A DNA stretch of 64,000 bases from Candidatus Poribacteria bacterium. Its GTDB lineage: Bacteria; Poribacteria; WGA-4E; WGA-3G. Each line of letters starts with the position of its first letter. The first letter of the stretch is position 1. Below are positions 3,401 through 62,742 of the stretch, piece after piece. The stretch covers positions 4,704,001 to 4,768,000 of the forward strand of contig OZ242029.1 in assembly GCA_965205015.1 (NCBI GenBank), written 5' to 3'. The notes below the pieces were generated by a model. That model was not told where the DNA came from, made no database searches, and saw only the letters and a program-made list of their open reading frames with translations. The position numbers were made by a program, and so were the translations under genes.

Positions 3401-4300
3401 GCAGTGGTGGATTTTAGCATATCACCACCGCTCTGGACGCGTTGGCGAACATATCTTCCGACACTCATCTTTATGACCGTCGTTCTAACCCTCATTGGTC
3501 GGCTGGTCGTAAATCGCCGCCACACCTTACAACTGCGGAATGAAGTGCGTCAAAGGGAAGAAGCGGAGATGCAGCGTATCCGTGCCGAACTGAGTGAAGC
3601 GCAAAATATTCAGATGGGACTCCTGCCTACGGAAGCCCCTGACACGAAGGGGTTTGATGTCGCAGGAATGTCGGTCCCTGCTACACAAGTCGGTGGCGAC
3701 TTCTACGATTACCTTACCGTAGCGAACGGACAGACCGCCATCGCGGTCGCAGACGCCGCCGGAAAGGGGTTAAGAGGCGCAATGAACGCCGTGCTAACGA
3801 ATGGAATGCTATATGAAGTCTCGCGTTTTAAGTCCGAAGCGGACATCATCCTTACCGACCTCAATTCAGGGTTAGCACCCCGCATGTACGGACCGAGTTT
3901 CATCGCTCTCAATCTCGCTGTCCTTGATGAAAATGAGAAACGGGTTAACTATGCGAATGGTGGACAACCCTATCCTGTTCTTAAGCGGGGGGCAGAGATC
4001 ATTGAAATTGAGAATAGCGATCTTCCACTTGGCAGTATGAAAAAGGTAGAATATGAGTCGGTTACCTTCGATTTAAATGAGGGGGACATCCTAATTTTTC
4101 ATAGCGATGGACTTATTGAGGCACTCAATACAGACGAGGAAATGTATGGAACGGAACGTTTAAAGGAATCAGTTTCAAAAATTCCGGATAGTTTCACAGC
4201 AACAGAAGTCATTGAAAGTCTCGTTGAAGATGTTCGCAACTTCGTCGGCGAAGCGGAGCAATACGACGATATGACGATCGTTGTTATCAAAATCCCTTAA
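434..4300 (+). CDS. Membrane sensor phosphatase: signal peptide, two-component-regulator beta-propeller repeats, Y_Y_Y-like domain, TM helix, coiled coil, SpoIIE/PP2C domain
   Basis: Repeated DSRGNLWF/EDSRGNIWF blades; YTGLKAGNYSF; TM LIFMTVVLTLIG; PP2C motifs GGDFYD, DAAGKG, HSDGL, QYDDMT. Start 425 or 434. Confidence 0.85.
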   Translation: MKNAILIFSIIFFSLLVCIETESEQILTYTVADGLIGPVVPVIFQDSRGNLWFGSDRGGVSQFDGTRFESYIGSPDTSEHAPTSNVGPGALLGQTRQIVEDKWGHIWFLTQFPSENSGKVSRFDGSSIDLIGTGNSLLADKHGDIWVGENQQLTKYTTPGVQRLPQAHPNEIIGEGLLRSTDFTINVIFESEDGTIWIGGSEGEEQQGVILSFRENRWVQDPLRVEESDAPREKTDDGTQRIHPNIGFTRYDLSTLNAVNGIEAIGEDISGNLWFGGYNLLLRFDGKVFEPILPLTRGHSGSIGSRPASIQRLASIRNDTQNRVWFSDGRTTRWWDGSQHGNLPGFLELEDAWGHLWFTDAIGAHEYDTDLTQMPDRINSGLGIEGIHTIYEAIDGKLWFGHDNGVTAFDPTPAISTHAGLGTNRVRMIFEDSRGYLWLSVPGGVARYDAESEELTTHIFRVSSVRNDPSSGSQIDARTIERVRPSRTEIEKIFEVGGHVWFIDEPGITSNSTRLRYTFFRYANGKFSQVSIPIQTIIGPGGERSDSDTNVLIREGEYTWMAFGGHIFKADAAGLLRLTNTGFQRILFQEIGPSTIPTPIAPIEFGTAPVTDLYRDPNDRLWVHFDNGKVLRYPKEINTTITRLSQPEILPLKATQLLKTASGSKWFFNAVTGKLTLWSDTELGSPLSLDGESSSAPIAVWKDASQQNNRVTFLFSDALKTYHGTSLISLEDIEIAEVQDSLTTQEGVLWLATSRGAVHYDGKRARIYTTKEEGFLVDNVKDVMEDSRGNIWFATWGGGTVRYDGETFYNLTTKDGLTHNNISRIHESANKDIWFTTEGGVTQYTPTRGGLPECRLTSLESDKIYTDLSSSLTLPSRGTKILNIQGISPLREGLSYRFKLIGLDTPTWMNVSAEEFSLLATGSAGPSDEWTPHTASVSTTQHPMRDSGVVQELQNRNGILRIQYTGLKAGNYSFLVTAFRKDWPYTHTPAVVDFSISPPLWTRWRTYLPTLIFMTVVLTLIGRLVVNRRHTLQLRNEVRQREEAEMQRIRAELSEAQNIQMGLLPTEAPDTKGFDVAGMSVPATQVGGDFYDYLTVANGQTAIAVADAAGKGLRGAMNAVLTNGMLYEVSRFKSEADIILTDLNSGLAPRMYGPSFIALNLAVLDENEKRVNYANGGQPYPVLKRGAEIIEIENSDLPLGSMKKVEYESVTFDLNEGDILIFHSDGLIEALNTDEEMYGTERLKESVSKIPDSFTATEVIESLVEDVRNFVGEAEQYDDMTIVVIKIP

Positions 4301-4302
4301 TA

Positions 4303-4340
4303 GTTGTCAGTTATCGGTTATCAGTCTTCAGTTAAAGAGG
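4303..4340. repeat. Heptamer-arm intergenic repeat (GTTRTCR)n-GTTAAAGAGG, left arm
   Basis: gttgtca gttatcg gttatca gtcttca gttaaagagg; related copies at 13747, 43089, 44224 and 51452. Confidence 0.7.
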
Positions 4341-14324: not shown

Positions 14325-14410
14325 TTTTTAATTATACCTTGCGAGGGAACAACATTGGTTCAGAGTTTGGCGTGTTTTTTTAAGAGTCGCTTTCCACTTC
14401 GTTCCAGGCT
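14325..14410 (+). repeat. Dispersed TTTTTAATTwTACCTTGCG...CAGGCT element (diverged copy)
   Basis: Same ends as the copies at 24318 and 32340. Confidence 0.55.
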
Positions 14411-43183: not shown

Positions 43184-44221
43184 ATGGAACAATGGATCAC
43201 AGAACTTATTAGCGGGTTACCCAGCCTGGCTCTCTTTCTGATAATTGCGGTAACCCTTTACACCCTCGGCAAAGGTGCAGATTGGCTCGTCGATGAAGCC
43301 GTCATCCTCTCGACCCGATGGGGTTTAGGAAAAGCCGTCATCGGCGCAACGATCGTGAGCATCGGCACCACAACCCCAGAGGCGGCGGTCTCTGTTTTGT
43401 CGGCACTCCAAGGAGAACCGGGGCTTGCACTCGGCAACGCAGTCGGTTCAATCATTTGCGACACGGGACTCATTCTCGGATTGGCATCCCTCATCGCGCC
43501 ACTCCCCCTCAACCGCCAATTGGCTTCACGGCTGTCAAACGTTCAGGTAGGTGCCGGTATCCTGCTCGTGCTCGGCTGTTTTCCGTGGACCTCCCCAGCG
43601 AAAGTCTTCACACAAGGCGGCACTTTACTACAACCTATAGGTTGGGTCTTCGTGGCACTCCTGGGGTTATACATCTATCAGTCCATCCGGTGGGCAAGTG
43701 CCTTAGGCGCGAATGCTGATAATGATGAAGAAGTGGAGGCAGAGGGAACAGGTGCTTTCGGAACACTCCTTAAACTCATCGGGGCAATCGCTATCGTGGT
43801 CCTTTCTGCACAGATTCTAATTCCGACTGTGATCGAGATAGCAGACAGAATACAAGTCCCGGAACACATCATCTCGGCGACCCTCGTTGCGTTTGGGACA
43901 TCGCTCCCAGAATTGGTAACGGCAATAACGGCAGTCAGACGCGGACACGGCGAATTGGCAGTCGGTAACATCATCGGCGCCGATATTCTCAACGTCCTCT
44001 TTGTCGCCGGTGTCTCCGCTTCGGCAACGCAAGGAGGTCTACAGGCAGATGGTCAGTTCTTCCAGTTCCTGTTCCCAGCGATGCTGTTTATCCTGATTGT
44101 GTTTAGGTGTGGGATCTTCGTATCGGGCGATCAGTTGAAACGTCCGTTTGGGGTCGTGCTGGTCGCCACATGGCTCTTGGTGACAATTCTGAGTTATGTC
44201 CTCTCAATTGAAATGCATTAA
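43184..44221 (+). CDS. Calcium/sodium antiporter (CaCA, YrbG-like)
   Basis: Alpha repeats GTTTPE...GNAVGS and GTSLPE...GNIIGA. Confidence 0.9.
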   Translation: MEQWITELISGLPSLALFLIIAVTLYTLGKGADWLVDEAVILSTRWGLGKAVIGATIVSIGTTTPEAAVSVLSALQGEPGLALGNAVGSIICDTGLILGLASLIAPLPLNRQLASRLSNVQVGAGILLVLGCFPWTSPAKVFTQGGTLLQPIGWVFVALLGLYIYQSIRWASALGANADNDEEVEAEGTGAFGTLLKLIGAIAIVVLSAQILIPTVIEIADRIQVPEHIISATLVAFGTSLPELVTAITAVRRGHGELAVGNIIGADILNVLFVAGVSASATQGGLQADGQFFQFLFPAMLFILIVFRCGIFVSGDQLKRPFGVVLVATWLLVTILSYVLSIEMH

Positions 44222-44223
44222 TA

Positions 44224-44317
44224 GTTGTCGGTTGTCAGTTGTCAACCGTCGGTTAAAAGAGGTTTTTGTTAGATGATAACCTCTTTAACTGAAAACCGAT
44301 AACCGATAACTGAAAAC
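44224..44317. repeat. Complete heptamer-arm hairpin element
   Basis: (gttgtcR)3...gttaaaagaggtt, loop, aacctctttaac(tgaaaac/cgataac)4. Confidence 0.8.
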
Positions 44318-52595: not shown

Positions 52596-53459
52596 ATGAA
52601 CACCCCAACGACAAGCGAACAGGTAGACATTCCCCAAATCCCATACCCACTCGACCTGTATCGATTCGACACGGCTGCCGAGGGGATTTCTGGTGGGTTT
52701 CCAGCCGTAACCGATGCAGACATCGAATACTTCCATCAAAACGGCTATCTCGTCATCAACGATGCCTTCAGTGCTACCGAAGTCGAGGACGCATTGGCAG
52801 GTATGATCCATCTGATGGACGGGAAGTGCCCTGATTTCCGAGCGATCCAATTTGAACCGAAACTCGTCAAGCGGAAGGATGAGCTGGAAGGGCAGGAACG
52901 CCGCGACGCCATCAGGAAAATCTTCAATTTCGTAGACTATGAGCCGCGTCTGAACGCCATGGCAGCCCATTCGGGACTTCTCGGTGTGCTTGAACAAATG
53001 ATAGGGGACACGCCTGAACTGTTCCAAGATATGGCACTCGTCAAACCGCCGCGTTACGGATCAGAAAAGCCGTGGCATCAGGATTGCGCCTACTTTAACC
53101 TACCGGAGGGAACAACGGTTGTCGGTGTATGGATCGCTTTGGATGAAGCCACCCCTGAAAATGGATGCCTACACATCATTCCCGGTTCAAACAATGAGGG
53201 ACCGATGATCCATTTCAAACGTCGAGATTGGCAGATTTGCGATACGGATGTACCCGTAGGGCGCGATACGATGGTACCGCTCAAACCGGGTGGTTGTCTC
53301 TTCTGGCACGGATTGACGCATCACGGAAGTCCTGTCAACCAATCGGGACAACGGCGGCGTGCGCTACAGTTCCATTACACACCGGCGAGTGCTGGAGAGA
53401 TTACGACACAGGAACGGATGGATGTTTACGGGAGCGAAGGGAAAGACGTAGATTGCTAA
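52596..53459 (+). CDS. Phytanoyl-CoA dioxygenase (PhyH) family protein
   Basis: NGYLV, KPWHQD, VWIALD, ENGCL, PGS, HHGS, RRA. Confidence 0.9.
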   Translation: MNTPTTSEQVDIPQIPYPLDLYRFDTAAEGISGGFPAVTDADIEYFHQNGYLVINDAFSATEVEDALAGMIHLMDGKCPDFRAIQFEPKLVKRKDELEGQERRDAIRKIFNFVDYEPRLNAMAAHSGLLGVLEQMIGDTPELFQDMALVKPPRYGSEKPWHQDCAYFNLPEGTTVVGVWIALDEATPENGCLHIIPGSNNEGPMIHFKRRDWQICDTDVPVGRDTMVPLKPGGCLFWHGLTHHGSPVNQSGQRRRALQFHYTPASAGEITTQERMDVYGSEGKDVDC

Positions 53460-53568: not shown

Positions 53569-56091
53569 CTATTTTCGTATCAGCAGCTTCCGCGTAGAAC
53601 TGAACTCCCCAGCCGTGAGCGTGTAGAAATAGGTGCCGCTCGCAACAGGTTCACCCACTTCATTTTTTCCATCCCAATACGCCGCAAGGCTACGACTCTG
53701 ATAAATGCCTGCCGCCTGATACCCCAATACCAACGTCCGAATCAAGTTTCCGTCCATCGCGTAGATACGTATTGTCACATCCGCAGGGACTGCCAACTGA
53801 TACGGTATCCAGGTCTCCGGATTGAACGGGTTCGGATAGTTGGCAAGCAGTGCTGTTTCTTGTGGTGTTAGCGAGGCGAGGAGCGCCTCCAAAAAGCGGA
53901 TGCCCCTTTGCGATGTACTTTCTGTGCGGTTAAGTTGTTGCGCTTGTGCGAGCCACTGTGCGACCTCCATCCTTATCAGCGGGAACTCCAGATCGCGATT
54001 CCACGTTGAGGGTGCTGCGGCAGCGTCGCCAATTACTATTGCTACCAACACCAGATCCTGGATGTCCACGACACCATTCTGATTAACATCCGCAATGTTT
54101 TTGCCAGTCTGCCCAAAATTCGCTGACACCAACACTAAATCTAATATGTTAACCTCGCCATCCGCATTGGCATCTTCAGGCTGTGGTGAGGGTTCGTCCC
54201 CGTTCCCGTTCATATCTTCAGGTTTAGGGGGATCGGTTGAGTCAAACGGTGCCACGCGTTCGAGATCCCATAGCAGCACTGTTCCATCGTCGCTCCCACT
54301 TGCCAACGTCTTGCTATCCGAACTGAACACGACCTTAAAGACACTATCCTGATGTCTGGGGAGTACACGAGGTATACTCTGAATATCTCCCCCCGAGTTT
54401 ATCGCCCACAATTGAACGGCACCGTCCACACCGCCCGCTGCCAACAGCTCCCCATCTGGACTGAATGCCACGCTCGTGACAGCTTCCCAATGCCTGTCTA
54501 ACTGGAGCCAAGTTTCGTCCTCGTAGACAACCCCCAGCGGCTCTCCGACCCGATGCCCCCCATCCCATTCCAACACATCAATCGAGTTCAGCGACACTGA
54601 ATTCGCCCATCTTCCAACCGCCAGTTTCCGTCCATCTGGACTGAACGCTACACTCGTGCGAGGCAAGTCATCAGAGGAAAAGCCATGCTTTATCTCGGCA
54701 GGGGTATCCGTCTGTAAACTCCACACTTGAAGGGTACCGTCCGTACTTGCAGTCGCCAGTATCGGTAAATTCGGATGGAACGCCACACTTGTGACAGGTC
54801 CTGTATGCCCTTTGAGCTTCAATTGCCCAATCCGGCTGTCGGATGGGGAGATAATGATAGTCCCGTCCCATTGTCCAACCGCCATCCGCTTCCCATCCGG
54901 ACTGAATGCCAGGTTTGAGAGACGAAGTATATGGCTATTGAACTGATCCACTTCATGCCCCTCTCGCGGATTCCATACACGGATGGTACCGTCAACACTG
55001 GCACTTCCCACCCAGTCTCCATCCTCACTGTACGCGACATTCCAGATACATCCTGTATGCCCTATGAACGTATACTTGAGTTCATCAGCAGTTATGCCAT
55101 CGTAACTTATATCCTCATACAGGCTCATAGTATTGGCAGGATGTTCCCAATGGTCCAGCCGCAAGGCATAATCGTCCGGGAGACCGTGGGGATATTTGAA
55201 GTTGTCTCTCAAAGTCACCACCACCTCTATGCGAGGAACAGGATCAGGGAAATTAGGATTAGAATTGTGCGTCCTATAATAGTGTCCAGTTGCCTCAACC
55301 CTCTCATCTCCACTTACCTCTTGATACTCCACGAATCTCTGCCTGTAGGAGGGGCGGCCCGGTAGATCATAGGGCCCCAGTAGATTATATCTGTAGATGA
55401 TACCGTCCGTACTTGCACTCGCCATACGAGAACCATGGAACCCTAGGTTCATGACGCGTGGAACGGTGCGTCTGTTCTTCTGTTCATGCTCATGAACCTG
55501 AGCCATCTGTCTGAAAATCCCTTTTCGATTAGACCCGTAGATGACGGAAGAAAGCGATCCCGACTCGTTCCACTTCTCTACCACCGTCGCCACGTACTCA
55601 GCGGCCGGCTGAATCCATGCGATAGGGACATAAGTTGGAGGTGTCCCCCACCCACCAGACGTATGAACCAGTGTCTTCTGATCCGTTGCCATATCATACT
55701 TTATATGATAGATAGCACCAGATAAGTTGCCTAATGCTATGGTCTCTCCATCAGAAGTGATCACAACCCGACGGGCATCCCAAAAATCCCACCAAGGAAT
55801 ATGGGGCAACTTTTGGGCGGTGTCGGCATTGTAGATCCCAACACCTGAAGAAGTTATCAATATTAAACGTCTGCTATCTGGAAAATAGTCGAAATCCCAG
55901 AGGTAATTAACGATATGTCCATCTGACTCCCCCTCATCTACCCGTCCTTGGAGGTGAGGGCAACGAAACGTCAGCCCCAGCCGCGCCCTGGCACCCTCGG
56001 GTAAAAATAAATCTTGGGCAAAGGCAGGTAGCAGATAGAATGTTGCAATCAGAACGAGCATAGCGTAGATAAAAAACTTTTTCGTTTTCAT
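53569..56091 (-). CDS. Secreted WD40 protein with dockerin-like domain and FlgD-Ig/T9SS-like C-terminal domain
   Basis: GHTG...AFSPDG...DGTVLLWD repeats; DANADGEVNILDLVLV and DVNQNGVVDIQDLVLV; NYPNPFNPETWIPYQL...WDGKN...SGTYFY...RKLLIRK. Confidence 0.9.
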   Translation of the reverse strand: MKTKKFFIYAMLVLIATFYLLPAFAQDLFLPEGARARLGLTFRCPHLQGRVDEGESDGHIVNYLWDFDYFPDSRRLILITSSGVGIYNADTAQKLPHIPWWDFWDARRVVITSDGETIALGNLSGAIYHIKYDMATDQKTLVHTSGGWGTPPTYVPIAWIQPAAEYVATVVEKWNESGSLSSVIYGSNRKGIFRQMAQVHEHEQKNRRTVPRVMNLGFHGSRMASASTDGIIYRYNLLGPYDLPGRPSYRQRFVEYQEVSGDERVEATGHYYRTHNSNPNFPDPVPRIEVVVTLRDNFKYPHGLPDDYALRLDHWEHPANTMSLYEDISYDGITADELKYTFIGHTGCIWNVAYSEDGDWVGSASVDGTIRVWNPREGHEVDQFNSHILRLSNLAFSPDGKRMAVGQWDGTIIISPSDSRIGQLKLKGHTGPVTSVAFHPNLPILATASTDGTLQVWSLQTDTPAEIKHGFSSDDLPRTSVAFSPDGRKLAVGRWANSVSLNSIDVLEWDGGHRVGEPLGVVYEDETWLQLDRHWEAVTSVAFSPDGELLAAGGVDGAVQLWAINSGGDIQSIPRVLPRHQDSVFKVVFSSDSKTLASGSDDGTVLLWDLERVAPFDSTDPPKPEDMNGNGDEPSPQPEDANADGEVNILDLVLVSANFGQTGKNIADVNQNGVVDIQDLVLVAIVIGDAAAAPSTWNRDLEFPLIRMEVAQWLAQAQQLNRTESTSQRGIRFLEALLASLTPQETALLANYPNPFNPETWIPYQLAVPADVTIRIYAMDGNLIRTLVLGYQAAGIYQSRSLAAYWDGKNEVGEPVASGTYFYTLTAGEFSSTRKLLIRK

Positions 56092-56170
56092 TGAACATCT
56101 CTCCCTTTCTCGCTATACAGATATGAACCTAATACGCCCCGACCGCTCCGCATGTCAGACTCGCGTTCAT

Positions 56171-57223
56171 CTACTGCTTCTCTTCAGGGAACGGCGCACG
56201 GATATCGTAACGTCCCTCAACAAATACGGGTAACTTTCCACCTTCAACCAACAGGTCAAGCGGGTTCGGGCGCGTTTTTAAGGGGAATGTAACAACATCC
56301 TGGAGGCGCAACGATTCATAAATCGCCATCAGGATTTCTATCGTGCAAAGTCCATGTCTGCCGGCATTGCGGTGTTCATCAACACTCCCTTCAATCCAGT
56401 CTAACATCTCATCAAATTGATTCGGTTCCCCTTGACGCGGTTCAATCACCTGCCAGCCTGCGGCTTTGCTGTTGAGCAATTCAATTGCTCCGTTGTCACC
56501 CCGACGGAGCTGCCCATCGTCGCCATAGACGACATCGCCTCGGAGGACGGGTTCCGGTAAATCGCTTTCGTAGATGCCGCGGATCCCGTTTTCAAAGCAG
56601 ATTTCCGCCATACACAGGTCTTCCGTTCTGACACGGCGTTCCCAGCGATCGGTTTTGCGTGCGACCTGACCGATGAGCCATAACGGATCCGGATCCCCGA
56701 GGATGTAGCGCATCTCGTCGATTTCATGGGTGCCACGGTTCAACAACCCGTGTCCGTCGCGACGGAGCATCGCCTGGGGTTGACCGATCGCGCCCTCTTG
56801 AATCAGGCGGCGTGCCTCGCAATTTTGGGGACTGAAACGCCGTTGGTGCCCAACGACCAATTTCACATTGTGCTTGTCACAGGCATCCATCATGTCCTGT
56901 GCGTCGCCAACCGAAGCCGCCATCGGTTTTTCGGTAATAACGCCGAGGACACCGCTCTCCGCAGCAGCGATCGTCGGTTCGGCACGGACGCTCTGCCACG
57001 TTGTAATACTGACGATGTCCAAGTCCTCTTTCTCGCACATTTCACCGAAATCGGTATAGTGGGTTGGGAGTGCGAACTCGTCTGCGAATTTCGCCGCGGA
57101 TTCTGCGCTAATGTCTGAAGCCGTGACAACTTCGACACGCCCGGTACTTGCCCAATTATTCGCATGGGAACGTCCCATGCCACCGCATCCAATAATGCCA
57201 ACACGATATGTTTTGTCTGCCAT
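56171..57223 (-). CDS. Gfo/Idh/MocA family oxidoreductase
   Basis: GIIGCGGMG, EKPMA, GHQRRF, GTHEID; start set at MADKTY. Confidence 0.9.
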   Translation of the reverse strand: MADKTYRVGIIGCGGMGRSHANNWASTGRVEVVTASDISAESAAKFADEFALPTHYTDFGEMCEKEDLDIVSITTWQSVRAEPTIAAAESGVLGVITEKPMAASVGDAQDMMDACDKHNVKLVVGHQRRFSPQNCEARRLIQEGAIGQPQAMLRRDGHGLLNRGTHEIDEMRYILGDPDPLWLIGQVARKTDRWERRVRTEDLCMAEICFENGIRGIYESDLPEPVLRGDVVYGDDGQLRRGDNGAIELLNSKAAGWQVIEPRQGEPNQFDEMLDWIEGSVDEHRNAGRHGLCTIEILMAIYESLRLQDVVTFPLKTRPNPLDLLVEGGKLPVFVEGRYDIRAPFPEEKQ

Positions 57224-57356
57224 CTGTCTCACCTTGTCCTCGCTTTTAAATTTACAGTAACTCCCTCGCCAGTAAAAGCAAGAGTTGTAGAAACACATTT
57301 TAGCAAAAGCCGCGTATCAAGGCAAGCAAATTGTAAGAAAAGATTCAGAAAGACGA

Positions 57357-57385
57357 TTGACAAAATTGTGCTGTTGGTATAGAAT
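57357..57385 (+). promoter_or_regulatory. Sigma70 promoter for the uORF/LRR gene
   Basis: TTGACA, 17 nt spacer, TAGAAT. Confidence 0.7.
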
Positions 57386-57456
57386 GTTTCCTGAGACGGG
57401 TTCCGGTTCCGAAGAGATATCCATGATACATCTTTTTTGATGAGAAAGGAGTCAAA

Positions 57457-57600
57457 ATGTCCGACATACGAAACGAGCACGCCAATATTGAAAGTGTCCA
57501 GTACTTCTATCGGTCCTCTAACATTTTATCCATGACACAGGTTGAGAACGAAGCTTTAGCACCCCACTCTGTCTGCCCCCCCCCACTTTACACCCGTTAA
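57457..57600 (+). CDS. 47-aa upstream ORF containing a C9 tract; probable out-of-frame 5-prime portion of the LRR gene
   Basis: AGAAAGGAG RBS, ATG 57457, MSDIRNEH...VCPPPLYTR*; too short for the ORF track. Confidence 0.55.
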   Translation: MSDIRNEHANIESVQYFYRSSNILSMTQVENEALAPHSVCPPPLYTR

Positions 57601-57625
57601 GCACATTTCACATAAGACTTCATCC

Positions 57626-57660
57626 AACTCGGACAGCGGTTGCTGCTGCCCGAGTTTTTT
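57626..57660 (+). terminator. Terminator/attenuator-like hairpin between the uORF stop and the LRR coding region
   Basis: AACTCGG-ACAGC...GCTGC-CCGAGTT followed by TTTT. Confidence 0.5.
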
Positions 57661-57661
57661 C

Positions 57662-60600
57662 ATGCCTAAACGCATTTTAGGGGTGTGCAGGCTATTTTTT
57701 TATCGCATGAAAACGACACAATTTCTCCTCACTTTTTTCATTGGGCTCCTTTTTCTAGCACCGCTGCACCCGGCGCGCCCGCACACCGTAAATGGTAACG
57801 CGAATCACAACGTGGACATTCCGGATACAGTTCTCCGTGGTGTTATCGAAGCCCGACTCAACAAGTCTTCTGGAGCAGACATCACCGCCACCGAGATGGC
57901 AACCTTGGATGAAGTCGTCAAAGCCGACCAAAACATTCATGATCTAACGGGTTTGGAGCATGCAACCGCTTTACAAAAGGTGCGCATCGGGCGCAATCGC
58001 ATACGATTTCCGCCCAGCGGAAGAACGCCACAAAACACCATTTCGGATTTGAGCCCCCTTACGAACCTAACAACGTTGATCGATCTGGACTTTACCACAC
58101 ATCGGATTACAGACATCTCGCCCCTTGCGACTTTAACAGCGTTGACAGACTTAACGCTTTCATACAATTCCGAGCTCACAGATATTTCGCACCTGCGGGG
58201 GTTAACAAGCGTGAAAAATCTTTTCCTTAACGCCTGTAACATCACGGACATAACAGCGATCGGAACGCTAACAAACTTGCGAGTGCTTGAGCTTGGGCGA
58301 AATTGGAACCTCCGGGATATCTCACCCTTGACGAATTTAAGGGATTTGAGAGTTTTGAAGCTTAATAGTACCGCCATCACCCCTGAAGGTCTATCCGCCG
58401 TGCTCCCGGCGTTAGAAGGTGCGAAGCGGCAAGGATCCGGACCAACGTATTGGGCGGGTTTAGACATTACGAACACTGACATCTCGGATCTCTCTGTGTT
58501 AGACAGGATACCCGACGGCGTGGTCCTGCACAACCTGTACCTGCAATACATGGGCACCAGCGCCAGTGAGACTCGCTTTTTTCTACTGAAGGATCTCACC
58601 CCCTTGGTGGATCTCATGAACAAGGGAAAGGTCATCGGTTCAGACACCAATATTCAATTGCGGTGGAACTTCAGACTGGACTATCCGTCCCTTTACGAAG
58701 ACATACCCGCCCTCTTAGCCAGTGTTCGTGGTGTCAGCTATCTTTCGTCTACGCCCGGGCTTGAGAGGGAATCTCCGACAGATGAACCTTACAGAGGCCA
58801 TCCCAGAATACGCCACACGTTTGTCGTGCGTGCCATTAATGACACCCCTTTTGGAAGCTATCCAATTGAGATAACTCGGAACCCTACATTCAACGGGGTG
58901 CCTGTTACGTGGAAGGTTACCGCGCCCGATGACACCCTAACGGAGACGAATGTCGTTACAGGTGACGATGGATTGGCAAGCGTCACCATTACCCTCGGAG
59001 ATGATGGGGAAACGCATACCGTGGAAGCCGTTGTCCCTGCGAACGAACGCGCAGCCACGGAGGGGCCTTCACACCCTGAACTCAAAGTGACCTTCACCGC
59101 CATAGCAGATCAGACAGTCGAACCGCCGCCGAGACCTACCCCACCACAGCCGCCCCGACTCCCCCGACTGACGGTGACGTTCGAGGACTACCCCGAAGAG
59201 AAGCCAGTTGATGAATTGACGCTCACGATCAGGTTTTCCGAACCCGCCATCGGTTTCGAGACGGAGGACATTACCGTAGAAACAGAACTCACCAGTGGGA
59301 AAGGGGATGCCACCTTGACGGACCTGACCCCCGAAACACCAATACACCCCGATAGACCCGAGCCTGACCCCATACAGACCTACACTGCAACCGTGGCACT
59401 CCCCGACCGCGCAAGAGGCACCGTGACACTCATCGTCCGAGAAAATGCCGCAATCACCCCGGCAACTGCCCCTGTGGAGAAGAGGGGTCCCGCTTCAAAT
59501 ACCGCCTCCGACCCCATCGAGTTCGGACGCAGACGTGTGATCGTCTGTCCACCATCTGTCGTGCCTATGGAGACAGTCATCTTCAATGAGTTCCGCAACG
59601 CTGAAAACGATACACACGACTGGATCGAACTCAAGAACATCTCCGATGAAGACGTGTCTCTCGCCGAATGGGAGATCAGTCTTGTCGTCCCGCACGCCAT
59701 CAGTCCGGCGGCACCGCAACAGGAAATCTTCGCAATGGATCGGGATATCGTCGCCTTTGGAGACTACACACTCCCCGCAGGAGGCATCCTGCTGATCGCC
59801 AATACCCACCCCAGTGAGACGGATCTGATACGCGGGCAGGACATCGAAAATCCCAACTATAATCCCGATCTCCTCCCCCACTATCTCATCGCACCGGAGA
59901 TGAAGTTGCCGAGTTCATTTTTGCTCATCCTCCGGAGTGTGCGCGATAAGAACGGTCAACACGAAGGCTTTGAAGACCTCGCAGGCGATTACCACAAAGA
60001 CGATGTCAACTACGCTACCAACATCTGGCCCCTGCTCTGTACCCCTGTCTATACCGGCACGGAGGCACGGTTCACCGTAGGCGACATCTATCAGCGGGTC
60101 ATGGTGCCAAAGGTTTCGTCGAGGACCCTGAACACCACGCCACAGCCCGAGAAACGCGGCTACCTTGAGGGCGCCTGGATGTTAAGTGTCTATCACAGTG
60201 GATTAGGCTATGACCCCGAGGCACCCCCTGAAACGAGTCTCGGCACGCCGGGGTATCCGCTGCCGGGACAACCGACTGAAAAGGGATGGGGAAACATCAG
60301 TTTTTCTGAGGTGATGTATGCGACGAACGATAACGGAGGACTCTCGCAGTGGATAGAACTCTACAACAACACCTCCGAGATCGTGGACCTCACGGATTGG
60401 GAGCTCATGATTGAGGCACGCGACAGCAAAACCGTCCGACGCTGGACATCGCTTCGGTTCAAATCGCTACACATCAGACCGAACGCAACCGTGCTACTGG
60501 TGGGGCGGAACGCCCGAACCTCAGGGAACATCCCTTCCGATCGGATTTACGATCTCTACCGTCGCAACATTGCGGCGTTTCGGCGACTCGGCGAGGGTGC

Positions 60601-61264
60601 GAACCGATTCCTCGGATGGGAGGGGTTTGCGCTGCGGTTGTTCTCCCCCGACGGCACTTTGGTGGATGTCGCGGGGAACCTTGATGGACGGCAAACGCAC
60701 GATAAACCGAAGTGGGAGTTGCCCGATGGCTGGACGAAAACCGGGACGCGTACCTCGTTGATCCGGGGGTATGATGCGCGTGTGCCACGGTTAGGGACGC
60801 TGTCGGGCAGTTTCGTACGGGCGGCGGATACAGCGTTGCTCAAGGGCTATTCGTATTGGGGACTTCCGACCGATAATGGGACCCCGGGGTATCGGCGGGG
60901 GAGTCCACTGCCTGTAACGCTGTCGAGTGTGCGTGCGGATCGTGCCGAGGGCGGGGTCGTAGTGAACTGGACGACGCAATCGGAGATGGAGAACGCCGGG
61001 TTCTATGTGCTGCGAAGTCAGAACAGCAAAACGGGATTCGTGAAAGTGAGCCCGACGCTGATTCCTGGAGCAGGCACGACTGCCGAACGAAGCACGTATA
61101 CCTACCGAGATACCACGGTGCAACCGAATGTGCCGTATTATTATCGGCTCGAAGAGGTCTCGTTATCGGGGGAACGTCGGGTAATGGCGACTGTGCGGCT
61201 ACGGGGACATCTCTTCGCTGCGGGAAAGACGCTTTGGAAGTGGGCGGATGTGAAACGGGAATAG
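57662..61264 (+). CDS. Large secreted protein: internalin-like LRRs, Ig-like domains, two lamin-tail-like domains, C-terminal tag
   Basis: ISDLSPLTNLTTL-type repeats; VIFNEF...DWIELKN and ISFSEVMY...QWIELYN; GTPGY; PLPVTLS...WTTQSEMENAGF; ends GKTLWKWADVKRE. Confidence 0.85.
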   Translation: MPKRILGVCRLFFYRMKTTQFLLTFFIGLLFLAPLHPARPHTVNGNANHNVDIPDTVLRGVIEARLNKSSGADITATEMATLDEVVKADQNIHDLTGLEHATALQKVRIGRNRIRFPPSGRTPQNTISDLSPLTNLTTLIDLDFTTHRITDISPLATLTALTDLTLSYNSELTDISHLRGLTSVKNLFLNACNITDITAIGTLTNLRVLELGRNWNLRDISPLTNLRDLRVLKLNSTAITPEGLSAVLPALEGAKRQGSGPTYWAGLDITNTDISDLSVLDRIPDGVVLHNLYLQYMGTSASETRFFLLKDLTPLVDLMNKGKVIGSDTNIQLRWNFRLDYPSLYEDIPALLASVRGVSYLSSTPGLERESPTDEPYRGHPRIRHTFVVRAINDTPFGSYPIEITRNPTFNGVPVTWKVTAPDDTLTETNVVTGDDGLASVTITLGDDGETHTVEAVVPANERAATEGPSHPELKVTFTAIADQTVEPPPRPTPPQPPRLPRLTVTFEDYPEEKPVDELTLTIRFSEPAIGFETEDITVETELTSGKGDATLTDLTPETPIHPDRPEPDPIQTYTATVALPDRARGTVTLIVRENAAITPATAPVEKRGPASNTASDPIEFGRRRVIVCPPSVVPMETVIFNEFRNAENDTHDWIELKNISDEDVSLAEWEISLVVPHAISPAAPQQEIFAMDRDIVAFGDYTLPAGGILLIANTHPSETDLIRGQDIENPNYNPDLLPHYLIAPEMKLPSSFLLILRSVRDKNGQHEGFEDLAGDYHKDDVNYATNIWPLLCTPVYTGTEARFTVGDIYQRVMVPKVSSRTLNTTPQPEKRGYLEGAWMLSVYHSGLGYDPEAPPETSLGTPGYPLPGQPTEKGWGNISFSEVMYATNDNGGLSQWIELYNNTSEIVDLTDWELMIEARDSKTVRRWTSLRFKSLHIRPNATVLLVGRNARTSGNIPSDRIYDLYRRNIAAFRRLGEGANRFLGWEGFALRLFSPDGTLVDVAGNLDGRQTHDKPKWELPDGWTKTGTRTSLIRGYDARVPRLGTLSGSFVRAADTALLKGYSYWGLPTDNGTPGYRRGSPLPVTLSSVRADRAEGGVVVNWTTQSEMENAGFYVLRSQNSKTGFVKVSPTLIPGAGTTAERSTYTYRDTTVQPNVPYYYRLEEVSLSGERRVMATVRLRGHLFAAGKTLWKWADVKRE

Positions 61265-61461
61265 GGAGCGGCAATAAAAGGACCTTAGGGTAGCAAGAAG
61301 CATGCGAAATTACTAACATGTGTCTTTTTTGACACAACCCTTGAAGTCAAAAAGTCTTATATTATCAGAGTTTGTAACAAGTAACCGATTGGCATCGTTT
61401 ATGCAGGTAGGGTTAGCACAACCCACTACATTCGGCGACGAAAATTTGTAAGGAGAAGGAA

Positions 61462-62742
61462 ATGGAAAAATTAATCGTCAAAGGTGGCACTCGACTGCAA
61501 GGAACGATCCCTGTCAGCGGTTGCAAAAACGCAGTTCTGCCTATCGCCGTTGCCGCTGCAATCCTCGGCGATGGGACAAGCGTCCTTCACAACGTACCGA
61601 ACCTAACAGACGTCAAAACCCTCAATGCTGTGTTGGAAGGACTGGGTGCGACAACAAAAATAAAAGACACCTCGCTCTATATTGAGCCAATAAACCACTT
61701 AGAGTACGAAGCACCTTACGAACTTGTACGAAAAATGCGTGCATCTATCTATGTCCTCGGTCCACTCGTAGCGAAATTAGGGAAGGCAAAAGTGTCGTTC
61801 CCCGGCGGATGTGCGATTGGACCCCGCCCGATCGACTTGCATATCCGAGGCTTAGAACATCTGGGGGCGGACGTCACAGTGGAACGCGGATACATCTACG
61901 CGCAAGCCGAACGCCTCGTTGGTACAGAGATGTATCTCATGGGACAGCACGGTCCCAGCGTCGGTGCGACTGCGAATGTTATGATGGCTGCTACCCTGGC
62001 TGAAGGTACAACGGTGATCCGAGGCGCAGCACGTGAACCCCACGTCTCTGATCTCGCCCGTTTCCTGAATGCAATGGGAGCAGATATAGAAGGCATCGGC
62101 ACCTCTGTGCTGACGATTCACGGCGTTAAACAACTGCGCGGCACCGAACACACCGTTATATCCGACGATATTGAGGCTGGCACCTTCATGGTCGCAGGCG
62201 CTATCACCAGAGGCGATGTTTATGTCAAAGGCATCACCCCCCAACAAATTCCCGCCATCTCAGAAAAACTCACTGAAGCAGGCGTCGAATTAAATTGGGA
62301 TGACGAGGGTGTCCGCGTTACAACACCGCGTGAGATTCAAGGGATTGATGTCACAACAGAACCTTTCCCCGGCTTCCCGACAGATATGCAAGCACAAATT
62401 ATGGGATTGCTCTGCCTCGCCTCCGGGACCAGCATTATCACGGAAAATGTACACACAGATCGCTATATCCATGCCGCGGAACTCAACCGGATGGGGGCGG
62501 ACATCATGCTCGATGGTGGCAAGGCAGTGATTAACGGCGTCCGAGAACTCAGCGGTGCCCCCGTGATGGCTTCCGATCTACGCGCAGGTGCTGTCCTTGT
62601 GGCAGTCGGAATGGCAGCCATCGGTGAAACCGTCGTATCACGGGTCTATCACATCGATCGTGGGTATGAATCCATCGAGGAAAAACTGAACAACATCGGC
62701 GCAAACATTAAAAGAGTCAACGACACCGACGCAGAAGTTTAG
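61462..62742 (+). CDS. murA: UDP-N-acetylglucosamine 1-carboxyvinyltransferase
   Basis: KNAVLP, RKMRAS, PGGCAIGPRPIDLH, SVGAT, FPTDMQAQ, DLRAG, HIDRGY. Confidence 0.97.
   Translation: MEKLIVKGGTRLQGTIPVSGCKNAVLPIAVAAAILGDGTSVLHNVPNLTDVKTLNAVLEGLGATTKIKDTSLYIEPINHLEYEAPYELVRKMRASIYVLGPLVAKLGKAKVSFPGGCAIGPRPIDLHIRGLEHLGADVTVERGYIYAQAERLVGTEMYLMGQHGPSVGATANVMMAATLAEGTTVIRGAAREPHVSDLARFLNAMGADIEGIGTSVLTIHGVKQLRGTEHTVISDDIEAGTFMVAGAITRGDVYVKGITPQQIPAISEKLTEAGVELNWDDEGVRVTTPREIQGIDVTTEPFPGFPTDMQAQIMGLLCLASGTSIITENVHTDRYIHAAELNRMGADIMLDGGKAVINGVRELSGAPVMASDLRAGAVLVAVGMAAIGETVVSRVYHIDRGYESIEEKLNNIGANIKRVNDTDAEV

Follow-up and report, generated by a model that had tools for sequence, protein, structure and literature searches.

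The DNA analyzed here is a 64-kb stretch (64,000 nucleotides, nt; called the window below, always at its full length) from Candidatus Poribacteria, a sponge symbiont, and the element in question is the leader at 57357–57706, which precedes a gene encoding a leucine-rich repeat (LRR) protein. Eukaryote-like repeat proteins abound in sponge symbionts, where they are believed to govern contact with host cells. The gene (57707–61264, + strand, like all features below unless stated otherwise) encodes a secreted protein with LRR, Ig-like and two lamin-tail domains (LTD, 1.5e-18; LRR_4, 9e-13), and its start is likely the methionine at 57707 (MKTTQFLLTFFIGLLFLAPL...), where the signal peptide begins; this residue aligns with the starts of the homologues (MKKFLFT.., MTKFFFT.., MSKTFLT..). 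A sequence-only reading of this DNA had proposed that a poly-C tract in a short open reading frame (ORF) of the leader couples phase variation of the LRR gene to attenuation, and all the features that it described were found in place, both by reading the sequence directly and with tools.

The leader starts with a sigma-70-type promoter, TTGACA-17-TAGAAT (57357–57385; −35 at 57357–57362, −10 at 57380–57385), which matches at 11 of 12 positions and is the top-scoring site in a scan of 56000–62000. A Shine-Dalgarno (SD) sequence, AGAAAGGAG (57443–57451, read directly), lies 5 nt 5′ of the ATG at 57457, which opens a leader ORF of 47 codons (57457–57600, TAA at 57598–57600), that is, a short ORF with a ribosome-binding site in the 5′ leader, as a leader-peptide attenuator requires; its translation is predicted. 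The ORF contains a tract of nine cytosines (C9, 57576–57584, read directly), the proposed switch and the longest G/C homopolymer in the window, and in the C9 state it ends as ...SVCPPPLYTR-stop in what will be called frame c, or the short frame. The tract is followed by a conserved 3′ module, ACTTTACA-N5-TAAG (57585–57601), which holds the short-frame stop and is matched by the family model R1 described below (57553–57623, E 3.8e-11, the window copy having belonged to the training set of this model), and then by a family-conserved TTCACA motif (57607–57612, read directly from the alignment), placed 14 nt after TTTACA here and about 17 nt after it in most copies. By eye, the sequence 3′ of the tract is C-rich and G-poor.

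In Bordetella, the fim C-stretch is a homopolymer switch located between promoter elements or activator sites. A comparable arrangement, with TTTACA-17-TTCACA as a promoter, was considered here and rejected, because the −10 match is poor by our own reading and the tract is inside an ORF; the tract is found 191 nt downstream of the −10 hexamer of the leader promoter, not between promoter elements.

As at a contingency locus, in which a homopolymer sets the reading frame, C9 lies within the leader ORF and the three frames that can leave it end differently. Frame a, entered with C10 or C7 (57585–57680, offset +93 at the stop), crosses a first hairpin and ends at the TAG 57678–57680 within a second one, 27 nt 5′ of the ATG at 57707. 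Frame b, entered with C8 or C11 (57584–61264), continues uninterrupted into the LRR ORF, which bears out the earlier claim that these two lengths fuse the leader ORF in frame with the LRR ORF. The LRR frame is also open from 57560, past the TAG at 57557–57559, and its ATGs at 57662 and 57707 have no visible SD, both as previously described.

Hairpin 1 is terminator-like (57626–57660; stem 57626–57656, T6 at 57655–57660), with a free energy of −18.6 kcal/mol and a z score of −3.8, only 1 of 200 shuffles folding as well, and the stop of the leader ORF at 57600 is 26–28 nt upstream of it. Hairpin 2, which had escaped the sequence-only reading, is weaker (57664–57701; stem 57664–57692, T7 at 57695–57701; −9.5, z −1.6) and was picked up by a script detector as well; its T7 ends 6 nt 5′ of the ATG at 57707. 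The promoter scan gave no promoter-like site in 57386–57707, and therefore the LRR gene must be transcribed through both hairpins. As a side observation, the minimum free energy fold of 57560–57704 pairs the poly-C tract and its 5′ flank (57571–57581) with the G-rich 3′ arm of hairpin 2 (57680–57692, including GGGG at 57680–57683), a pairing that in this folding model could be an antiterminator for hairpin 2.

A poly-C leader family in Poribacteria

The segment 57573–57605 was first seen recurring in loose contig ends of other runs, and BLAST and pattern searches then found a poly-C tract followed by ACTTTACA in other Poribacteria. The pattern CCCCCACTTTACA gave 74 matches in 42 of 175 Poribacteria genomes, versus 13 with the reversed control. 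With the window included, 63 of the 75 pattern copies have C5–C16 followed by ACTTTACA-N3-7-[AT]AAG, while the 12 that lack the TAAG part (L100, L101, L102, L105–L108, L110, L130, L133, L159 and L160) were left out of the counts, although three of them, L101, L102 and L110, may be true copies that have diverged. The wrong tract had been chosen for L275, which was excluded, and nine coding-embedded or doubtful copies (L111, L116, L126, L155, L156, L157, L164, L168 and L171) were set aside.

A sequence-only model, R1, was built from 54 copies and returned about 370 matches in 76 of 150 genomes, with up to 23 per genome and a single one in the window. The 24 model matches that were read have tracts of C8–C18 and variant flanks, such as ACTCAACA, GCTTAACA and ACTTTTCA, and genome G142 has 10 tracts of at least C10, every one of which belongs to the family. 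Furthermore, a pattern scan of 241 million metagenome records returned 82 stretches, about seven of which are family members by reading (L178, L190, L196, L202, L217, L226 and perhaps L199); L180 and L197 contain long C runs in other contexts, and the remainder are chance matches of C5–C7. The window's own locus was absent among these 82 stretches.

The architecture was analyzed in 78 leader-type copies, which fall into groups that share ancestry. In all 78 of them, the tract is entered by exactly one long upstream frame, which is open over 116 nt or more, and the leader start codon is usually found 110–160 nt 5′ of the tract, often with an SD. A near-consensus promoter is present 75–123 nt 5′ of the leader start in 22 of 39 group representatives, versus 157 of 780 shuffles, and 11 of those 22 have the perfect 12/12 sequence TTGACA-17-TATAAT. 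Past the tract, frame c, which reads P(n)-L-Y/N/F/H-x-x, stops 10–13 nt on in nearly all copies. Further on, at +20 to +260, 37 of 40 group representatives have a terminator-like hairpin, versus 55 of 200 shuffles. Hairpin 1 of the window has homologues in 11 other copies (12 in total), with compensatory changes in 4 of the 11 pairs. The layout of promoter, ribosome-binding site, upstream ORF, poly-C tract and hairpin is common to the homologous LRR genes and to many other genes in related Poribacteria, as the sequence-only reading had suggested checking. Leader and coding-embedded copies alike preserve the nucleotide sequence of the flank past the tract (RCTYWAYA-N5-TAAGTA and, about 17 nt further on, TTCACAA), a conservation that is not explained by any single reading frame.

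Some observations made along the way concern other tracts and the assemblies themselves. The 4.6-Mb genome G166 (loci L305–L322) contains 52 tracts of C10 or longer, many of which belong to a second variant family, with C12–C22 followed by AGATTCAAC...GTTAAC, while others are poly-C/poly-G palindromes with the appearance of repetitive extragenic palindromes (REP-like). In fragmented assemblies, many copies are located within a few hundred bases of contig ends (e.g., G121:C345, G127:C33, G135:C84, G145:C92 and G004:C30); either the multi-copy leader or population heterogeneity could be fragmenting assemblies at family loci.

Tract length, alternative frames and downstream genes

The tract ranges from C5 to C18 over the 78 copies, with most tracts of 9–13 nt, and the C count differs in 8 of the 9 pairs in which both flanks are at least 90% identical; L120 and L137, for example, have flanks that are 99% and 98% identical, yet they carry C9 and C10, respectively. 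As assembled, 42 of the 78 copies are in frame c, 19 in frame a and 17 in frame b, and in the model-derived subset the three states are nearly uniform (10, 7 and 7 of 24). The frame in use as assembled reaches a stop within 40 nt in 55 copies and stays open for 100 nt or more in 21. CCC accounts for only 25.5% of the Pro codons in the long ORFs of the window, yet the tracts are pure C, which argues for selection on the homopolymer, or for expansion dynamics of its own, rather than for selection on polyproline.

In all 78 copies, at least one of the two frames other than c is open for at least 100 nt beyond the tract (both in 24 copies, only a in 35 and only b in 19), and in all 37 representatives at least one of them is open through the first terminator stem; as controls, the c phase after its stop is open through the stem in 17 of 37, and the reverse-strand phases in 23 of 111. 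At several loci the long frame reaches the start of the downstream gene. It overlaps this start as ATGA in L129 and L135, both homologues of the window LRR gene, and in L151, and it leaves a gap of 0–5 nt in L290, L294, L301 and L304. Likewise, all 13 copies in front of DUF4007 genes show TTGA, TTGnnTAA or ATGnnTAA, with a strong SD upstream, and the long frame of these orthologues is a in eight and b in five.

Every copy with enough flank is followed shortly by a co-oriented gene. Of 41 downstream proteins scanned, nine have LRRs (two of them with LTD, as in the window), three fn3, one cadherin, one LamG and one TonB_C; another three are DUF4007 proteins, one combines DUF499 and HEPN, three are Eco57I-type methylases, three belong to other families, and 16 have no family match. 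The DUF4007 gene comes first in a cluster that also contains a PAPS-reductase-like gene and ATPase genes. Among 19 proteins from the model-derived set, four have LRRs (two with cadherin), three are FGE-sulfatase-like, seven have no family, and the others are represented once each: NPCBM, LamG, patatin, LDL-receptor repeat, and DUF1156 with a methylase. Judged from these family assignments, the downstream genes, for surface proteins and for defence and restriction-modification (R-M), are typical of contingency loci.

The same poly-C tract and ACTTTACA-N5-TAAG module also occur inside long ORFs of Eco57I-type R-M/methylase genes, in three groups (L116/L126/L156, L157/L171 and L164/L168). Among the methylase orthologues, the ORF is intact with C8 in L164 and broken with C10 in L168, and in the other pair it is intact with C9 in L157 and broken with C8 in L171; because they are full length or truncated according to the C count, these loci resemble classical phase-variable R-M genes, with the module of the leaders in common.

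A proposed frame-switching attenuator and its rivals

The shared layout, the variability of the tract and the alternative frame through the terminator fit a device in which the tract length picks the frame and the frame decides on termination. We favor, if only by a modest degree, the reading that 57357–57706 is a copy of a multi-copy Poribacteria cassette that acts as a frame-switching poly-C attenuator. The cassette opens with a near-consensus promoter, followed by an SD and by a leader ORF, about 47 codons long, in which the poly-C tract is hypervariable; then come a short "decoder" directly 3′ of the tract, in which one frame stops at once, one or two terminator-like hairpins, and the controlled gene. 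With C9, the ribosomes would leave at 57600, the hairpins at 57626–57660 and 57664–57701 would form, and transcription would mostly end before the LRR gene. A change of one base in the tract would shift translation into one of the two other frames, which lead to 57680 inside hairpin 2 (C10/C7) or into the LRR ORF (C8/C11), and in either of them a ribosome moving along the leader would prevent the terminators from folding and then deliver translation to the SD-less LRR gene, turning it on. The length would change by replication slippage, giving heritable phase variation, and possibly by slippage of RNA polymerase as well. C9 would thus be the attenuated state, with the other two length classes permissive, and, because C9 corresponds to the short frame, the LRR gene is probably off in the window. 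We infer from the sequence that the hairpins terminate transcription, which frame is the ON frame, that switching is heritable and frequent, and that it affects LRR expression.

The coupling of phase variation to attenuation put forward by the sequence-only reading stands insofar as the layout is family-wide, the tract varies between close relatives and an alternative frame passes through the terminator; two of its parts are not borne out in the form proposed. One is the fusion of the upstream ORF with the LRR protein as the general ON product: in L129, L135 and L162 the LRR gene has an SD and a signal peptide, its frame is open only from its own ATG onward, and the long leader frame goes no further than this ATG, stopping on it or short of it. 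The fusion protein is therefore probably incidental, since homologous LRR loci cannot make one. The other is directional +1 ribosomal frameshifting, which is unlikely as a rule, as entry into the sole long frame takes one extra base in 35 copies and the loss of one in 19; as a general rule it was ruled out on these counts, the long frame being on either side.

Several observations weigh against the frame-switching attenuator. At the window locus, C9 was also found in contigs from two samples, one identical (X1) and the other with 32 substitutions and no gaps over 56918–58400 (X3), so that no heterogeneity of C length was seen in these contigs, which hide minor variants. Homopolymers of 10–18 bases are error-prone in assembly, and some of the length differences and out-of-frame counts may be technical; moreover, the counts over the 78 copies are not independent, as the groups share ancestry. 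Among the 36 groups for which a crude rule predicted a downstream start, the long frame by our own reading ends within 8 nt of it in only nine and 15–180 nt before it in the others, with 50–180 nt in many groups. No antiterminator structure was found to be conserved. The family profile from which the poly-Pro tail was omitted did not detectably match the N-terminal part of the window leader peptide (E 1.1, rank 3 of 1543 frames), and the variable sites of the leader ORFs are spread flatly over the codon positions (219/188/212), from which it follows that the body of the leader peptide is not under protein-level selection; this flat variation fits a mere carrier of the frame and gives no independent proof of leader translation. 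Finally, MutS and MutL are present in all five genomes checked, so that there is no general mutator background; loss of mismatch repair was thereby ruled out as the source of the instability.

The leader could also be a fixed-frame polyproline attenuator, in which translation always stays in the short frame, P(n)-L-Y-x-x-stop, pausing on consecutive Pro codons (EF-P- or prolyl-tRNA-dependent) is timed against RNA polymerase and so governs the terminators, as has been proposed for mgtP of Salmonella, and the length differences are neutral or assembly noise. Pro-codon leader ORFs with attenuators are known (PMC3641672, PMC5299641), and in the present family PPP and a short conserved tail close the leader, more copies are in the short frame than in either of the other two (42 of 78), and certain differences within the 3′ module leave the short-frame peptide unchanged (CCA/CCG, CTT/CTC). 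However, 36 of the 78 copies are out of the short frame, with near uniformity in the model-derived subset, and PPP is encoded by runs of pure C, in spite of the low share of CCC among Pro codons, rather than by the synonymous codons expected of an mgtP-type leader. A fixed frame needs neither the open alternative frames (37 of 37) nor their endings on the downstream start, and the identical module is an in-gene frame switch in the methylase genes, all of which makes this explanation unlikely. Rather improbable, too, is non-heritable slippage, of RNA polymerase on the C run or of the ribosome on CCC-C, which would give each cell a fixed fraction of the long frame and set an expression level, not an ON/OFF state. 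Transcriptional slippage at runs of at least nine has been described, as have slippage-made extensions that overlap the next start, in Shigella spa13/spa32 (PMC5009743), and the prevalence of tracts of 9–13 nt is in keeping with it, as is a hairpin that, by our own reading, lies just 5′ of the tract in part of the family, the GTTAAC-rich variants. Nevertheless, the efficient slippage documented in that paper concerns A and T runs, and its sole example with C is T5C5, aided by a helper hairpin; the fold of the leader shows no evident hairpin directly 5′ of the window tract. Furthermore, near-identical loci differ in tract length, meaning that the DNA itself changes, and the occurrence of the long frame in both directions opposes a directional +1 ribosomal shift.

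A different kind of explanation separates the leader from the LRR gene: 57357–57660 would be a self-contained unit for a 47-aa protein or a small RNA, with the LRR gene expressed separately. The strong promoter, SD, ORF and strong terminator do make up a complete unit, and one that is multi-copy, but there is no promoter-like site from the terminator to the ATG at 57707, a co-oriented gene follows shortly in every copy with enough flank, and the flat codon-position variation gives no sign of selection on a protein. Regarding a structured RNA, an Rfam scan of 57200–57800 at E values up to 10 returned only a chance snoRNA match (E 3.9) on the opposite strand, and the leader as a whole folds no better than shuffles (z +1.24); we regard a separate small gene as very unlikely. 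Little more can be said for the view that the ON product is the fusion made at C8 or C11. Frame b is indeed open from the tract through the entire LRR ORF, and the long frame is continuous with the gene in two further groups, L154 and L169, both of which encode fn3 proteins. On the other hand, a fusion would bury the signal peptide of M 57707 about 85 residues inside the protein, it is impossible in the three LRR homologues whose frame opens at its own ATG, and by our own estimate the stretch of 49 open codons 5′ of the start is expected by chance in about 1 case in 10; this view is accordingly given as little credence as that of a small gene. Lastly, C9 might be an assembly error in a plain 5′ region that regulates nothing, given that homopolymers are error-prone. 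Since two samples agree on C9, and the tract recurs with its conserved flanks in hundreds of independent assemblies, this can practically be dismissed.

The frame-switching attenuator has relatives among known systems. In Neisseria meningitidis, a poly-C frameshift in siaD leads to an early stop of translation and to premature termination of transcription, so that the downstream transcript is lost. The tract of siaD is inside the structural gene and its polarity acts within that gene, unlike the dedicated leader cassette of Poribacteria. The contingency loci of Neisseria, Haemophilus, Campylobacter and Helicobacter resemble the Poribacteria family in that a G/C homopolymer of at least about 8 sets the frame, the genes are those for surface or host-contact proteins and for R-M, and many loci occur per genome (PMC5084427, PMC8437040, and a Ribo-seq preprint on C. 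jejuni). They differ in that the Poribacteria tract mostly lies outside the regulated gene and its promoter, in a distinct leader ORF further upstream, and belongs to a conserved cassette with its own promoter, 3′ module and terminators, in an uncultivated sponge symbiont for which switching is a prediction.

On the side of attenuation, the Salmonella leaders mgtP (mgtCBR) and mgtL (mgtA) also have a short ORF with Pro codons in a long 5′ leader, and translation of mgtP decides on stem-loop formation and downstream transcription (PMC3641672). Their Pro codons are a physiological sensor in one fixed frame, whereas the Poribacteria run is pure, variable in length and apparently makes use of the other frames. 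In tnaC and speFL the position of the ribosome on the upstream ORF decides on termination, and the invertible fim and flgB elements couple a stochastic DNA switch to termination by Rho (PMC12360218); these systems rely on metabolite-induced stalls or on DNA inversions, in contrast to the frameshift in an upstream ORF acting on intrinsic-terminator-like hairpins that is proposed here. That ribosomes prevent the formation of terminator hairpins and the loading of Rho is known (PMC5021804). In Shigella spa13/spa32, an upstream ORF is extended by slippage so as to overlap the next start, which affects expression (PMC5009743); it differs in having A/T runs and slippage at the RNA level, and neither a terminator cassette nor a multi-copy family.

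A broader proposal is that a portable, self-contained "phase-variable attenuator" cassette, made up of a consensus promoter, a leader ORF that carries the frame, a hypermutable poly-C tract, a three-frame decoder and terminators, stands before dozens of eukaryote-like surface genes and defence genes per genome, with its core module also inside R-M genes, and that the 3′ flank, RCTYWAYA-N5-TAAGT, conserved in unrelated contexts, is a sequence-specific aid to slippage or decoding and not a mere sign of shared ancestry; we put it forward tentatively, as a possibility toward which we do not lean. If true, contingency tracts and leader-peptide attenuation would be joined in one movable cassette, each cell lineage would express a random combination of host-contact and anti-phage functions, and the symbiont population would spread its risk in dealing with the host and with phages, much like pathogens of mucosal surfaces. 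In this context, single eukaryote-like proteins have been reported to let bacteria evade phagocytosis by sponge cells (PMC13747020, 2026). In the literature, no paper was found that ties Poribacteria to phase variation, homopolymeric tracts, contingency loci, slipped-strand mispairing, simple sequence repeats or poly-C, or sponge symbionts or eukaryote-like proteins to phase-variable genes, and none that combines the terms phase-variable, upstream open reading frame, homopolymeric and terminator, subscription journals and supplements being outside this search. The parts are known singly, but the literature searched yielded no paper that brings them together, with a homopolymer of highly variable length inside a dedicated leader ORF, followed by a conserved decoder and terminators, in many copies before host-contact and defence genes of a sponge symbiont.

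Genomic setting of the inserted leader and LRR gene

The leader and the LRR/LTD gene together occupy about 57344–61308, with borders near 57343/57344 and 61308/61309 according to the junction alignment. Directly downstream is the gene of MurA, whose product is 77–94% identical to MurA of 14 Candidatus Poribacteria genomes. In these genomes (L001–L014) the match to the window covers 56171–57234, an oxidoreductase gene that is the closest window-matching gene 5′ of murA, and then resumes at 61314; the spacing between the oxidoreductase gene and murA is about 90–130 nt in L002, L004 and L008, and is filled by about 1.1–1.8 kb of other DNA in L001 and L012. Because none of the 14 related genomes has the window leader or the LRR gene, the block at about 57344–61308 is a lineage-specific insertion. 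The junction alignment showed no target-site duplication or inverted repeats at its borders. The right border of the inserted cassette is marked by an inverted repeat, ACATGTGTC-T6-GACACAAC (61309–61335), which is just 5′ of murA and is conserved in the relatives.

An 840-aa WD40 repeat protein is encoded on the other side of the oxidoreductase gene (53569–56091, − strand), and this gene is a lineage-specific insertion as well: in L002, L004 and L008 the window matches that flank it (53000–53459, and from 56171 onward) are only about 60–125 nt apart. Thus, two genes for eukaryote-like proteins have been inserted, one on each side of the oxidoreductase gene.

Two further sets of repeats were noticed elsewhere in the window. 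A 25-nt direct repeat, TTTTTAATTTTACCTTGCGGCGGAA, is found at 14325, 24318 and 32340 (88–100% identical), and two of its copies are followed after 64 nt by a 46-nt repeat (24382 and 32403); this may be another upstream element shared by paralogous genes. Repeats of GTTATCGGTTATCAGT-like units are located at 4290–4336 and 44211–44257, and similar units appear in loose ends of the X3 contigs and in intergenic DNA of L014, which suggests that they are probably a dispersed short repeat of Poribacteria.

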